Positions 21,189 through 64,000 of a stretch of DNA of 64,000 bases are shown piece after piece. The stretch comes from Escherichia phage phiE142: the sequence record NC_055709.1; one strand, 5' to 3'. Made by a program: the position numbers and the translations under genes. Within the stretch, counting starts at the first letter, position 1. Each line of letters begins with the position of its first letter. Below the pieces are notes generated by a model that did no database searches, was not told the DNA's origin, and saw only the letters and a list, made by a program, of their open reading frames with translations.

Positions 21189-21214
21189 ATTATTCTCCTC
21201 TGGTTGATATGGTT

Positions 21215-21243
21215 ATAATATCAAAACCAGAGGAGAAGTAAAC
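21215..21243 (-). promoter_or_regulatory. Sigma70-type early promoter-like element inside an inverted repeat
   Basis: Minus strand GTTTAC, 17 nt, TATTAT; 11-bp inverted repeat CTCCTCTGGTT/AACCAGAGGAG (21195-21235) brackets the -10 and contains the downstream ribosome-binding site. Confidence 0.5.
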
Positions 21244-21247
21244 AACT

Positions 21248-21676: not shown

Positions 21677-22162
21677 TTAAGCTTTACGAGGAGACACATA
21701 GCGAGTGATTTCAGATTCTTCAACAACTCGGAAGTCACCTAAGAATACAATATTGTATAGCTTTTTACCATCTTCAACCCATTGGTCACTAATGAAGCCA
21801 CACATAGTATCAGTTTTGCTTGGATAACCGTATTCATCGATGAAGTCAAATTCTTTATCAGTCTGGAATTCAACACCTTTACACAGGGCCCATTTGAACT
21901 GTACATTATGCTCTGTGGATTCAACTTTTTCTCTTGAAGCAAAAGCACTACTCACAGGCATTTCCAAGAACTTTGCACGAACATAAGCAAATTTGGTTTC
22001 CTGTGTCCCAAAACTAGGAATAATACGAACTTTTACCTCAGAATCTTCATCTTTAACGCCTTCTTTAAGTTGAATACTTACAACTTCGACCAATTTTCCT
22101 GCGGCTTTAGAACGAGATTTGTTAGATACGCGAAAGATTTCACCAATAATACCAAGATTCAT
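21677..22162 (-). CDS. Paralogue family protein (about 161 aa from internal ATG)
   Basis: Same conserved blocks; start taken at MNLGIIG with AGAGAGAGAAA ribosome-binding site, as the track N-terminus runs over promoter sequence. Confidence 0.55.
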   Translation of the reverse strand: MNLGIIGEIFRVSNKSRSKAAGKLVEVVSIQLKEGVKDEDSEVKVRIIPSFGTQETKFAYVRAKFLEMPVSSAFASREKVESTEHNVQFKWALCKGVEFQTDKEFDFIDEYGYPSKTDTMCGFISDQWVEDGKKLYNIVFLGDFRVVEESEITRYVSPRKA

Positions 22163-22224
22163 AATTTCTCTCTCTTTGTTTAAATTGAATTCACTATACT
22201 CCATCCATCCTTGGATGTACAACA

Positions 22225-22719
22225 TTAATTAAGGATATTAACCACAGCACTACGTGGAACTACACTAAAATCACCTGCATGAACAACGTTCAGAAGTTCA
22301 ACACCGTCTTCAATCCACTGGTCAGTTACCCATCCATTTACTGGACCTGTGAACGGGCGTCGAATTGAAACATATTTACACAGCAAATCAGTAGGCTCAA
22401 TAGGCTTAATCAGAGTACCGTACATACAAGCGATATCCATATCAATACAGATGTCTTTAACGGGTTCTACTTCTTCAATCAACAGTTCAAAGTCTGTGCT
22501 TGGAAGGGCGGTAGTAGAAATTGTACCATATGAATTTTTAATTTCTAAGAATAACCAAGGGCCTTCAGCTTGTTTGATGAAGTTAACAATAGTGAAACTA
22601 TTGCCTTGAGTGGCACCTAAAATTTCACAAAACTTTTCGTAAGCTCGCACTGAAGCACTGTACCAGTTGATTTGTTTTTCGTCTTTCAGGATGTAAGTAG
22701 CCGTAGTATTGATATTCAT
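22225..22719 (-). CDS. Paralogue family protein (164 aa, divergent)
   Basis: C-terminal block W.TDQWIEDGVELLNVVHAGDFSVV related to the two ORFs above. Confidence 0.5.
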   Translation of the reverse strand: MNINTTATYILKDEKQINWYSASVRAYEKFCEILGATQGNSFTIVNFIKQAEGPWLFLEIKNSYGTISTTALPSTDFELLIEEVEPVKDICIDMDIACMYGTLIKPIEPTDLLCKYVSIRRPFTGPVNGWVTDQWIEDGVELLNVVHAGDFSVVPRSAVVNILN

Positions 22720-22750
22720 AATGTTTTTCCTGTTTGGTTAAGATAGAAAG

Positions 22751-22781
22751 ATTATACTCCAACCATCCTTGGTTGTAAACT
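22751..22781 (-). repeat. 31-nt promoter cassette, copy 1 (identical to 63501-63531)
   Basis: ATTATACTCCAACCATCCTTGGTTGTAAACT on plus text; minus strand GTTTAC, 18 nt, TATAAT; spacer has internal palindrome CAACCA..TGGTTG. Confidence 0.6.
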
Positions 22782-22785
22782 GATT

Positions 22786-23463
22786 TTATCGCTGTTTTAC
22801 ACTTAACGGGTCAGGATTCTCAGGGACATCTTCAAGGCCAAGCGCATAACGCTGAGCATATTTTAACATCAAAATATCTTTAGCACAATCATGAATACTA
22901 TCATGGGCAACGAATCCTTTTAGCGTACCCATCGGTAATGGACACATACTTAATCCTCGTGTCAACGAGTAAGCTTCGATTGCCGTACGAATATCGCGTT
23001 GAGCCCAGAATTTAACCGGTTCTAATTTATCAGTATCAATCTCTGGTTCAAGAACACCTTCATCACGATAGAGATCACGAATCAAATCGACCAAGATCGG
23101 GAAGTCAAAGCTCATACCACGGCACCACATTTGCGATTTCCATTGGTCAACTTTATTAGCTCGACAATAATCTAAAAAGATTTTAATGCCTTCAAGCGTA
23201 GTGACATCGTCTTCAGACGGAGCCAGGTTTTTACGTGCTTCTGCTGATTGTTCTTTCCACCATTTCATAGTGGATTTAGCGAAAACTCGCTTCCCTTTTT
23301 GAGAAGCTAAATTAAATTTAATTCGCTTACCTCGTTGAACAAGTTCTTCAAATGATTCAACAACTTCAGGGTCGGAATTATATGCAATAACCGCCAGGTC
23401 AATAACAGCCGCTTTTGATGTATTGCCGAATGTTTCAAAATCTATAATAACATCAGTGCTCAT
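22786..23463 (-). CDS. dexA: Exonuclease A (DexA), DEDDh family
   Basis: 225 aa; IIDFETFG exo motif, FVAHDSIHDCAKDILM block as in T4 DexA. Confidence 0.8.
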   Translation of the reverse strand: MSTDVIIDFETFGNTSKAAVIDLAVIAYNSDPEVVESFEELVQRGKRIKFNLASQKGKRVFAKSTMKWWKEQSAEARKNLAPSEDDVTTLEGIKIFLDYCRANKVDQWKSQMWCRGMSFDFPILVDLIRDLYRDEGVLEPEIDTDKLEPVKFWAQRDIRTAIEAYSLTRGLSMCPLPMGTLKGFVAHDSIHDCAKDILMLKYAQRYALGLEDVPENPDPLSVKQR

Positions 23464-33156: not shown

Positions 33157-33470
33157 ATTTCCTCACAGAACGCCCATTCAGCATGATAAACTGTAGCACC
33201 TTTAGTATTATTCATTTGAACTACGTCTACCGGAGAAATTACTCGATAGAGACGTGGTTCACCTCCATAAGAGCGTGCTGCTCGTCCTGCATAAATCTTT
33301 GCTAAACCGATATCTTCAGTAAAGAATACACGATTCAAGTTTTTCTTACGTCCGGTTTCAGACAGAACTCCTGTTTCTTCAGGAGGACAAAGCATGTTTT
33401 CGATGTTAGCTGAACTACTTGAACCGTGATAAAAAATCTTAAATTCTGCTTTACAATCGATGGTTTTCAT
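33153..33470 (-). CDS. Hypothetical protein (105 aa)
   Basis: ORF only. Confidence 0.5.
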   Translation of the reverse strand: MKTIDCKAEFKIFYHGSSSSANIENMLCPPEETGVLSETGRKKNLNRVFFTEDIGLAKIYAGRAARSYGGEPRLYRVISPVDVVQMNNTKGATVYHAEWAFCEEI

Positions 33471-33525
33471 TTTGTTCTCCAGTAGTTGATAGGTCTATAA
33501 TAACACAACTACTGGAGAAGTAAAC

Positions 33526-33900
33526 TTAAAAACGTAATTTAGATATATCTGCGTTGATTTCGTTTTGGTTTGCGTCGTATGCAATTAAACGAACCGCTTT
33601 AGATGGGTCATTCAATGCATAGAAATGATGGAACATTGCTCGAACGATATCACCATTTACGAGTTCTACCTGGATAGGAGAACCTTTTTCGAGTTGGAAA
33701 TGTTCATAAGCTTTAATGGTTCGCAGATAATCAAGTTTTTGATTTCCGGCTCCAACGATTTGTACGATACGTTTGCCCATGTTTTCCATACGAGATACAA
33801 TAGTTTTAGGAGCAAGAATAACGTAGGTTGCCAGCGGAGAAACTACTTCAACAGTTGTGTTTTCGGTGATTGCAGTAAAAATTGCTTGAGACATATTCAT
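33526..33900 (-). CDS. Hypothetical protein (124 aa)
   Basis: ORF with AAGAGGAAA ribosome-binding site and own promoter. Confidence 0.5.
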   Translation of the reverse strand: MNMSQAIFTAITENTTVEVVSPLATYVILAPKTIVSRMENMGKRIVQIVGAGNQKLDYLRTIKAYEHFQLEKGSPIQVELVNGDIVRAMFHHFYALNDPSKAVRLIAYDANQNEINADISKLRF

Positions 33901-62218: not shown

Positions 62219-62523
62219 TATAATGTTCTCTCAAATTTGTGGAAGCATTTACGGCATTTCAATTTCAAGTTATCAGTGGTCCAGTTAACCAGTTGGACTT
62301 GGATAGTTCCACATTCCGGACATGGATGTTTTGCTGCCGATTTGGCAGCATTTTCACGTCGTTCAACCATTTTCATGATTTCGTTCCATGCCGGAGGAAC
62401 GAACTCTTCTTCATCGTGGATATTATCTCGCTGAACAAATTCAATCTTTGAACTATCATCAATAAACTTAACCAAGCTGTTATTAGTGCTCATATCAATA
62501 TCCTCTAAAAGACGTAGGTTCAT
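62218..62523 (-). CDS. Zinc-ribbon protein (101 aa)
   Basis: CPECG...CRKC four-Cys motif at C-terminus. Confidence 0.5.
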   Translation of the reverse strand: MNLRLLEDIDMSTNNSLVKFIDDSSKIEFVQRDNIHDEEEFVPPAWNEIMKMVERRENAAKSAAKHPCPECGTIQVQLVNWTTDNLKLKCRKCFHKFERTL

Positions 62524-63473
62524 TATAACACCTCAATGGCATTTCGTAAACCATCCGCTTTCGCATTCAGAGCTTTTAACGATTTAGTTTGTTCTGCAAT
62601 CTGGGCTTCGACTTCTTTCAGACGAGATTTGAGATATTCGCGTTCTTCTCTTAAGTTATCAACTTTTTCTGCTTTAGGTTCTTTAATAGGCTTAGGCTTA
62701 TACTCGTTAGGGTTCTTCAACTTAATTTGAATGCGAGAACTGTATAACATTGAACCATTATCTTCGGTTTCATCATACATTTCTACCACGTCCATGATTC
62801 TTAACATCATGCGAAGTTTATAAGACAGCGAACGAATGGTTTTGTTGCGCTTATTAATTTCTTCGGCTTTCATAGTACCGAGATTACGTGAGTAATAATA
62901 AGGAACCTGGATATCAATTGATAACGACGCGGTGCCATTACCGGTTGGTTTGAATACTGCAGTAACCCAATCTTTAACATGAACTTTATTTGTACGATCA
63001 TCACCGCCTGTGAATAATTTACGTGAATGTTTAAAAAGCATATTCACTTGGTTATTGAATTCACAAGCAAATTTATCAGCAAATTTAGTTTCAGGAATGG
63101 TAGATAACCAATCAGCCAAATGAGTCTTTTTAACATCATTAACAATAGTGAATTCAACCAAATCTGTTTTAGATGTCACAGATTTAATAAAGCTCGGTTT
63201 CATAAAGTTTTTAATGTTATCGCGAGCTACAGTAGAAGATAATAAACGAGAACGTTTAAACCATTGAAGCAGCGTCCCTAATGAATGAGAATACGCATTT
63301 TGAGTATCTTTACAGATATGATTTTCTTGGCCTGTGTATGTACCAAAATCGCGAAGAATACCACTTACTACATCTCGGTGTGGAACATCAAATCCTAGTG
63401 CGCCAACAGCGCGCTGGGCGTGAACGTTAGCGATAAGTCCTGCAAAGTAATCAATGTAATGTGAACGTGTCAT
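62523..63473 (-). CDS. Hypothetical protein (316 aa) with C-terminal coiled coil
   Basis: ORF with GAGAGGAAAA ribosome-binding site downstream of promoter cassette copy 2. Confidence 0.55.
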   Translation of the reverse strand: MTRSHYIDYFAGLIANVHAQRAVGALGFDVPHRDVVSGILRDFGTYTGQENHICKDTQNAYSHSLGTLLQWFKRSRLLSSTVARDNIKNFMKPSFIKSVTSKTDLVEFTIVNDVKKTHLADWLSTIPETKFADKFACEFNNQVNMLFKHSRKLFTGGDDRTNKVHVKDWVTAVFKPTGNGTASLSIDIQVPYYYSRNLGTMKAEEINKRNKTIRSLSYKLRMMLRIMDVVEMYDETEDNGSMLYSSRIQIKLKNPNEYKPKPIKEPKAEKVDNLREEREYLKSRLKEVEAQIAEQTKSLKALNAKADGLRNAIEVL

Positions 63474-63500
63474 AATATTTTCCTCTCGTTAAGATAGATT

Positions 63501-63531
63501 CATTATACTCCAACCATCCTTGGTTGTAAAC
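63501..63531 (-). repeat. 31-nt promoter cassette, copy 2 (identical to 22751-22781)
   Basis: Same ATTATACTCCAACCATCCTTGGTTGTAAACT block; minus strand GTTTAC, 18 nt, TATAAT. Confidence 0.6.
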
Positions 63532-63535
63532 TATT

Positions 63536-64000
63536 TTATGATTTTAATGCATTCATTGCGTTAAAAAGTTTAGAATACTGCAACTGGAGATTCGTTACAA
63601 CACTTTGAGCATCACGAAGCTTAGCTTGTGCTTTGTCAAGTTCAACAGACAGTTGGTCTACAGTAGCCTTGATTTGATTGTAATGGTAATCTTCGGCCGG
63701 AATAAGGTCATTAGAAACATTTAGTTTTACTGCAGACAGTTTGCACACATTTGGCAAACCTTTAAACATTGATTTACCCGAAGTAGAATAAGCACTTAGG
63801 ACTTCGGCCTGTTCAATTGGGGTCCCAGTAAGCGATGCTTCAAACAATGCATTTTCTTTTTTAAGATTTTGATAGTATTCAGAGTCTTTGTGCCACCATG
63901 GCGCAGGAACCTTTTTACCAATAGATACACGAGCCTGGATAGCGATATGGCCCTTATTCTTGATAGGGTCGATAATATTAAGCTCACGAGAATAAATTGC
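63536..64000 (-). CDS. Hypothetical protein, 5' end beyond window (partial)
   Basis: Minus-strand reading frame is open from the window edge to the stop at 63536; the track start at 63847 is a TTG inside this frame. Confidence 0.45.
   Translation of the reverse strand, partial: AIYSRELNIIDPIKNKGHIAIQARVSIGKKVPAPWWHKDSEYYQNLKKENALFEASLTGTPIEQAEVLSAYSTSGKSMFKGLPNVCKLSAVKLNVSNDLIPAEDYHYNQIKATVDQLSVELDKAQAKLRDAQSVVTNLQLQYSKLFNAMNALKS

Follow-up and report, generated by a model that had tools for sequence, protein, structure and literature searches.

Copies of a predicted early promoter cassette in Escherichia phage phiE142 and their likely part in gene flux among RB69-type phages

A 31-mer (ATTATACTCCAACCATCCTTGGTTGTAAACT) found in two exact copies in the DNA of Escherichia phage phiE142 is probably the core of an early promoter borne by a PeSL-type cassette. 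It belongs to a subfamily of four cassettes whose copies would recombine with one another and thereby shift genes between them (probability of this reading about 0.85). The analyzed DNA, hereafter the window, is a stretch of 64,000 nt (record NC_055709.1) that shows 99.2-99.9% identity to Escherichia phage phiC120 and Shigella phage Shf125875 (RB69-type phages, genus Mosigvirus). According to this reading, the host sigma-70 RNA polymerase would read the cassette promoter right after infection, and each cassette would provide its own gene (motB.1, motB, nrdC.5 or nrdC.3) with an early transcription start. The four members sit in two variable gene clusters, one with motB.1 and motB and the other with nrdC.5 and nrdC.3. 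Since they are direct repeats sharing 27-46 nt of identity, the copies could act as recombination substrates: an exchange between neighbouring copies would remove, or possibly insert, the gene located between them and leave one chimeric cassette, and exchanges between distant copies would keep these copies nearly identical. Promoter activity and timing are predicted from sequence, any attenuator role of the hairpin in a read-through RNA is putative, and we infer likewise the type of exchange, be it general homologous or site-specific recombination.

Repeat copies and downstream genes

The original prediction placed the 31-mer at 22751-22781 and at 63501-63531. Both exact copies are real and the first position is right, but the second one is shifted by one base and should read 63502-63532. 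The number of exact 31-mer repeats expected by chance is 0.00 (100 dinucleotide-preserving shuffles). The other structural elements that had been pointed out were all recovered: (i) a similar leader, AAGATAGA on the plus strand or TCTATCTT on the minus strand, accompanying both exact copies, (ii) a CAACCA/TGGTTG palindrome (22760-22765/22770-22775 and 63511-63516/63521-63526), (iii) a different minus-strand gene after each copy, encoding the 164-aa MotB.1 (22225-22719) or the 316-aa NrdC.3 homologue (62523-63473), and (iv) a degenerate third copy, announced near 22190-22222, which corresponds to a variant at 22193-22221. The features are as follows.

21677-22162, minus strand: motB (161 aa, Pfam family motB), predicted to be driven by cassette 3
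22163-22227, minus strand: cassette 3 (motB.1/motB), variant copy, with TGTACA tccaaggatggatggag TATAGT at 22221-22193
22202-22207/22212-22217, minus strand: stem CATCCA/TGGATG of cassette 3, with a compensatory A-T to T-A change
22225-22719, minus strand: motB.1 (164 aa, distant MotB family), between cassettes 1 and 3
22720-22788, minus strand: cassette 1 (dexA/motB.1), beginning with the stop codon of dexA (22786-22788) and ending just before the ATG of motB.1, with a 31-nt leader carrying a Shine-Dalgarno sequence (SD)
22751-22781, minus strand: 31-mer copy 1, with -35 TTTACA (22779-22774), 17-bp spacer (22773-22757) and -10 TATAAT (22756-22751)
22760-22775, minus strand: inverted repeat CAACCA-AGGA-TGGTTG of copy 1, inside the spacer
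62523-63473, minus strand: nrdC.3 homologue (316 aa, no Pfam family), predicted to be driven by cassette 2
63474-63538, minus strand: cassette 2 (nrdC.5/nrdC.3), beginning with the stop codon (63536-63538) of the partial nrdC.5 homologue and ending just before the ATG of nrdC.3
63502-63532, minus strand: 31-mer copy 2, with -35 (63530-63525), spacer (63524-63508), -10 (63507-63502) and inverted repeat (63511-63526)
63536-64000, minus strand: 3' part of the nrdC.5 homologue (DUF7235), truncated where the window ends

The second copy lies in the nrdC.x cluster, and all the genes concerned are on the minus strand. Looking for the motif in related phages, as had been proposed, revealed it in RB69, in about 130 Mosigvirus records and in putative Dhakavirus genomes.

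The position of cassette 3 also bears on gene annotation. The 182-aa program-made ORF and the database annotations of motB (phiC120 gp125, Shf125875 gp011) start at ATGs located inside the promoter spacer or the -10 (region 22163-22225). The protein most likely begins with the ATG at 22160-22162 (161 aa), which lies downstream of where the transcript is expected to start. The motB starts annotated inside the promoter in several database records are probably wrong, and their correction is a practical use of the present finding. In RB69, motB.1 is split by a frameshift into two ORFs (RB69p012 and RB69p013; 1115-1611 of locus L022), and the motB cassette has a damaged -10 (TATAAA) and a shortened hybrid leader.

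Predicted early promoter

Read on the gene strand, the 31-mer is AG TTTACA accaaggatggttggag TATAAT, which gives a -35 hexamer and a perfect -10 separated by a 17-bp spacer. Both copies match 11 of the 12 positions of the sigma-70 consensus and are the best site of their region in an independent consensus scan. The G preceding the -35 generates the GTTTAC that is typical of T4 early promoters, and an A-rich, UP-like stretch that includes the TAA stop codon of the upstream gene lies directly 5' of the -35 (cgaTAAaatcag for dexA, tcaTAAaatag for nrdC.5). The T4-type early promoter features are thus present: GTTTAC (-36 to -31), an A-rich region (-40 to -44) and a -10 resembling TATAAT. The whole cassette extends over 65-70 bp, from the stop codon of the upstream gene to the ATG of the next one, and the leader that follows the -10 (25-31 nt) ends in an SD and the ATG (AGGAAAAACATTATG and GAGAGGAAAATATTATG). 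The two exact copies are alike across the whole intergenic cassette, including CTATCTTAAC and GGAAAA..ATTATGA. The 31-mer is therefore the predicted core of an early sigma-70 promoter of T4 type, of which it covers about -37 to -7. Both exact copies (TTTACA-N17-TATAAT) also fit the PeSL promoter consensus TTTACW-N17-TAYWAT, and the variant copy reads TGTACA-N17-TATAGT. The proposal that the copies define a co-regulated promoter class fits well with these results, since this predicted PeSL-type early cassette is common to four genes.

The orthologous RB69 sites were predicted to be early promoters (Pe:8947, Pe:8387, Pe:51019 and Pe:52042) by a hidden Markov model (Nolan et al. 2006; PMC1524935 supplement). 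Cassette 1 corresponds to Pe:8947, cassette 3 to Pe:8387 and cassette 2 to Pe:51019. By contrast, a dependence on MotA, to which the proposed check of binding by MotA/AsiA-modified polymerase pointed, is not supported. The phage does have a motA gene, and nothing further speaks for a MotA-dependent middle promoter. No copy carries the TGCTT of a MotA box ((a/t)(a/t)(a/t)TGCTTtA, centred near -30 in place of the -35), a good -35 hexamer is found instead, and none of the 32 predicted middle promoters of RB69 falls at the four cassette sites, all of which are in the early list. These observations argue for an early sigma-70 promoter, and a MotA-dependent one is extremely improbable.

The T4 GenBank record has no annotated promoter at the orthologous sites, and a literature search for a Mosigvirus transcriptome found none. 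The T4 genes motB, motB.1, nrdC.3 and nrdC.5 all belong to the early RNA class (PMC9697503 supplement). Since the cassettes at these positions are of other types in T4, the orthologues give indirect support to an early timing of the four genes. A mini-ORF that can be read in the spacer (ATG GTT GGA GTA TAA) was rejected, because its ATG is destroyed by the common ACGG variant and the SD-like AAGGA abuts this ATG without spacing.

Census of early promoter cassettes

In the complete genome of phiC120, the 26-nt core occurs in three exact copies (before motB.1, nrdC.3 and nrdC.5) and in one copy with three mismatches (before motB), and no further member was found within six mismatches of this core. 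The fourth cassette, which precedes nrdC.5 and has the same 27-nt core, is found in both phiC120 and RB69. From these two genomes, the nrdC.5 copy of the source genome is expected about 1 kb past the window end.

A scan for early-promoter cassettes gave 36 candidates, nearly all on the early-gene strand, which sort by sequence into at least four subfamilies. The longest runs that cassettes share exactly are of 42, 33, 31 (the present 31-mer), 29 and 28 nt. Since other cassettes also share runs of 28-42 nt, an identity over 31 nt is typical of this system and not exceptional. In most of the other subfamilies, the stems are stronger (z -3 to -7) and extend across the -10, and the stem of the 31-mer subfamily is among the weakest. 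Three types of these other cassettes, all on the minus strand and designated here by the first base of their -35, are near-identical within type and have stems that mostly span the -10: type A (10739, 11251 and 32211), type B (10477 and 55313) and type C (8167, 21242, 33524 and about 26851). The two type B cassettes differ by a compensatory change (GAGAGC/GCTCTC versus GAGAGA/TCTCTC).

In two related loci, nrdC.6 is preceded by a degraded cassette akin to that of the 31-mer, at a position past the end of the window (L004, 4608-4669; L023, 5025-5086). It reads CTTTACCCAAGGACGGGTTATAAT, keeps the AAGGA centre, has a new stem (ACCC/GGGT) and shows a shortened spacing that is far too short for a sigma-70 promoter. 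In Dhakavirus-like genomes of 155-172 kb, mostly about 170 kb (IMG/VR loci L006-L008, L010, L011 and L013), a T/A-stem version of the cassette precedes a gene whose product starts with MTRTEY or MSRNEY. This gene appears to be the counterpart of nrdC.3, so that the pairing of cassette and gene seems older than the split between Mosigvirus and Dhakavirus.

Inverted repeat of the promoter spacer

The inverted repeat forms a 6-bp stem with a 4-nt loop within the spacer, the 5' arm overlapping the last 2 nt of the -35. Its folding energy is -6.9 kcal/mol as RNA (z -2.9) and -5.5 kcal/mol as DNA (z -3.8). An intrinsic terminator is not supported: the hairpin is weak and contains A/T pairs, it is followed by GAGUAUAAU without any U-tract, and a terminator scan made no minus-strand call at either exact site. 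For the same reasons, this subfamily lends no support to the part of the PeSL concept that concerns termination or attenuation.

Among 25 copies from 17 sources, the stem shows two states, AACCA/TGGTT or ATCCA/TGGAT, which are both complementary, and no half-changed stem was seen. The innermost pair is broken in eight of these copies, and the broken variant is found at all four loci, in different genomes. The eight distinct cores show four invariant pairs, one pair that changes on both sides and an innermost pair that is broken in half of them (AAGGAC). Paired cells amount to 91.7% in these eight cores versus 8-50% after sliding the partner by 1-3 columns, and the observed covariation score was reached in 7 of 500 shuffles. 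The loop AAGGA and the following GGAG are invariant. A scan of IMG/VR in which the four inner stem pairs were left free yielded nine loci and two stem states only, which makes the covariation evidence thin. The covariation is suggestive: it concerns a single pair and maybe a single double event.

Three candidate roles can be proposed for the stem: (i) a hairpin of the read-through RNA, (ii) an aid to recombination at the DNA level or (iii) a protein-binding site. The third role would be that of an operator for a dimeric DNA-binding regulator, for example in autoregulation by the MotB family, added to the early promoter. The symmetry maintained through the double change without any half-changed copy would agree with such an operator, as would the invariant loop and GGAG and the fact that two of the four copies drive MotB-family genes. 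However, 8 of 25 copies have a broken innermost pair, with all four loci affected, the centre of the inverted repeat is asymmetric and the binding protein is only hypothetical. Furthermore, unrelated stems lie in or across the promoter in other cassette subfamilies, which suggests that these cassettes have a stem in general and that it is no specific operator; we consider the operator improbable. A somewhat broader proposal, in which the in-spacer repeat with its AAGGA loop and GGAG is a specific signal, either an operator (perhaps for the MotB family) or a processing or stability signal of the read-through RNA, is unlikely, if slightly less so. If true, it would set the four genes apart from the other early cassettes (about 30) in timing or level of expression.

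Two other candidate structures were rejected. A conserved alternative stem across the -10 (AAGGAUGG/CUAUCUU) is predicted for one copy, but the motB and nrdC.5 copies and those of Dhakavirus type lack its 3' arm. A strong RegB site (unpaired GG*AGRAYARAA) does not fit either, since GGAGUAUAAU matches four of the seven positions after GGAG and the first G, which is the last base of the stem, is paired. No known RNA family was detected by an Rfam search of the whole window.

Signs of recombination and gene flux

The cassette copies coincide with gene presence/absence junctions at two loci. In phages p000v and G2469, nrdC.5 is absent and a single cassette lies between nrdC.6 and nrdC.3. This cassette is chimeric: its upstream half (…GGAATGA TGTACA) comes from the nrdC.6/nrdC.5 copy and its leader (GAATCTATCTTAAC…) from the nrdC.5/nrdC.3 copy, the join being inside the shared 27-mer. 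Homology breaks at the same point in AV109 and FL31, which probably lack nrdC.5 too. For motB.1, the junction predicted for a recombination between cassettes 1 and 3 was used as search sequence. It found one contiguous match in phi25-307, JK42, JM17 and NHEP36, all of them devoid of motB.1. In phi25-307, the dexA-side upstream part and TTTACA are joined to a motB-type stem and leader, and the crossover may have taken place within an interval of no more than 7-9 nt.

Exchanges also seem to affect distant copies. In the window, the 4-nt block that follows the -10 reads CTTT in the motB.1 copy and GAAT in the nrdC.3 copy; RB69 has CTTT in both copies, and G53 has GAAT in its motB.1 copy. This switching looks like an exchange of patches between loci located 40 kb apart. 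The distant copies of RB69 share an identical run of 46 nt, as counted by eye from printed sequences. The chimeric cassettes found at the losses of nrdC.5 and motB.1, together with the block exchange, point to recombination between copies, and these chimeric cassettes at gene presence/absence junctions agree with the initial idea of a recombination hotspot or small mobile promoter unit. Since both motB.1 and nrdC.5 have T4 counterparts, deletion is the simpler direction, and the presence of both genes in T4 and in RB69 suggests gene loss rather than insertion. Relatives lacking the gene keep one hybrid cassette, so that the expression of the next gene is predicted to be preserved.

Purifying selection for a very strong promoter could by itself keep the copies alike, without any role of these copies in gene flux or recombination. 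Both promoter hexamers and the A-rich part upstream of them are indeed near consensus, and T4-type early promoters are conserved over about 40 bp (PMC1524935). However, most of the 17-bp spacer is not read by sigma-70 and is nevertheless identical, whereas equally good early promoters of the same genome have quite different spacers. Selection of this kind also leaves aside the chimeric cassettes located exactly at two independent gene presence/absence junctions and the 4-nt block that moves between loci, and it is very unlikely as the whole explanation.

The copies could also be leftovers of a tandem duplication of gene and promoter, as in the MotB paralogue array, where motB.1, motB and ORF010c are tandem paralogues and two of them carry the cassette. 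However, the third paralogue has no cassette and is separated from motB by a gap of 9 nt, and the cassettes before motB and motB.2 of T4 are of other types. Furthermore, NrdC.3, NrdC.5 and NrdC.6 have no mutual similarity, and MotB.1 and MotB belong to another family, so that gene duplication cannot explain the shared cassette; nor can it account for identity across 40 kb. Tandem gene duplication was therefore rejected as a general source and, as an explanation of the copies, is just as doubtful as selection on the promoter; it could be the origin of the motB.1/motB pair alone. Recombination between cassette copies remains our preferred explanation for their identity.

In two phages of the T4 genus, L021 (Tequatrovirus teqhad, 1501-2013) and KRT47, we observed a motB.1 ORF of Mosigvirus type with 95% identity, far above that of its flanks. 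On one side this homology stops at the -35 of the following cassette, and on the other it ends inside the leader. This looks like the transfer of a single-gene cassette between genera.

Comparison with known systems

In the T4 genes e, soc, 49 and I-TevI, a hairpin masks the ribosome-binding site in the read-through RNA, and an internal promoter gives a translatable RNA. Cassettes 21242 (21190-21247) and 33524 (33470-33530), both on the minus strand, have a 12-13-bp stem that pairs the promoter spacer with the downstream SD, so that their ribosome-binding site would be masked in a read-through RNA and accessible in the RNA made from their own promoter. These two cassettes would behave like the T4 hairpins, and the dexA/motB.2 cassette of T4 looks like the same type. 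By contrast, the stem of the 31-mer cassette is wholly inside the spacer, away from the SD.

The four orthologous RB69 sites resemble the early promoters described previously by GTTTAC at -36 to -31, the A-rich -40 region and TATAAT (PMC1524935). That work treated them as individual promoter predictions, and a term search of its text found no mention of a spacer, stem-loop or hairpin.

PeSLs have been described as repeated motifs of hyperplastic regions, in which an AT-rich region that includes the upstream stop codon is combined with a sigma-70 promoter and a stem-loop (Arbiol et al. 2010; PMC2839356), and TTTACW-N17-TAYWAT is the promoter consensus of those of the T4/PST pair (Comeau et al. 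2014; PMC4122927). They are known in RB49/phi1, T4/PST and KVP40/nt-1 (PMC2839356, PMC4122927). The present cassettes share many features with them: (i) an AT-rich upstream part that holds the stop codon, a sigma-70-type early promoter and an SD and ATG at the 3' end, (ii) a stem-loop lying between the -35 and -10 elements, which is one of the classes reported (PMC2839356), (iii) repetition in the genome, with four copies in phiC120 (an identical core of about 26-31 nt and similar flanks), and (iv) location in hyperplastic regions (nrdC.x and motB clusters), with chimeric copies at indel junctions. They differ in that they are found in RB69-type Mosigvirus and putative Dhakavirus relatives, neither of which is mentioned in PMC2839356 or PMC4122927, and our literature search found no paper linking PeSLs with RB69 or Mosigvirus. 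Furthermore, the stem is short (6 bp), contains A/T pairs and has no U-tract, whereas the Gn-loop-Cn stems of RB49/phi1 were shown to terminate transcription. As for recombination, what was observed here are its presumed natural end products, the chimeric junctions.

The cassette class was thus already described, the RB69 orthologues were already predicted early promoters, and the 31-mer cassettes reveal no new mechanism. The modest novelty of this work lies in (i) the probable extension of this class to RB69-type phages, with a small subfamily of four members that have their stem in the spacer, (ii) two natural gene-loss junctions that map exactly to cassette copies, and (iii) signs of exchange between copies located 40 kb apart. 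These cassettes illustrate clearly, in natural isolates, how accessory genes are rearranged in T4-like phages, single genes being bracketed by short near-identical promoter cassettes. Overall, the PeSL picture now covers the RB69 group, to which many isolates for phage therapy and biocontrol belong.
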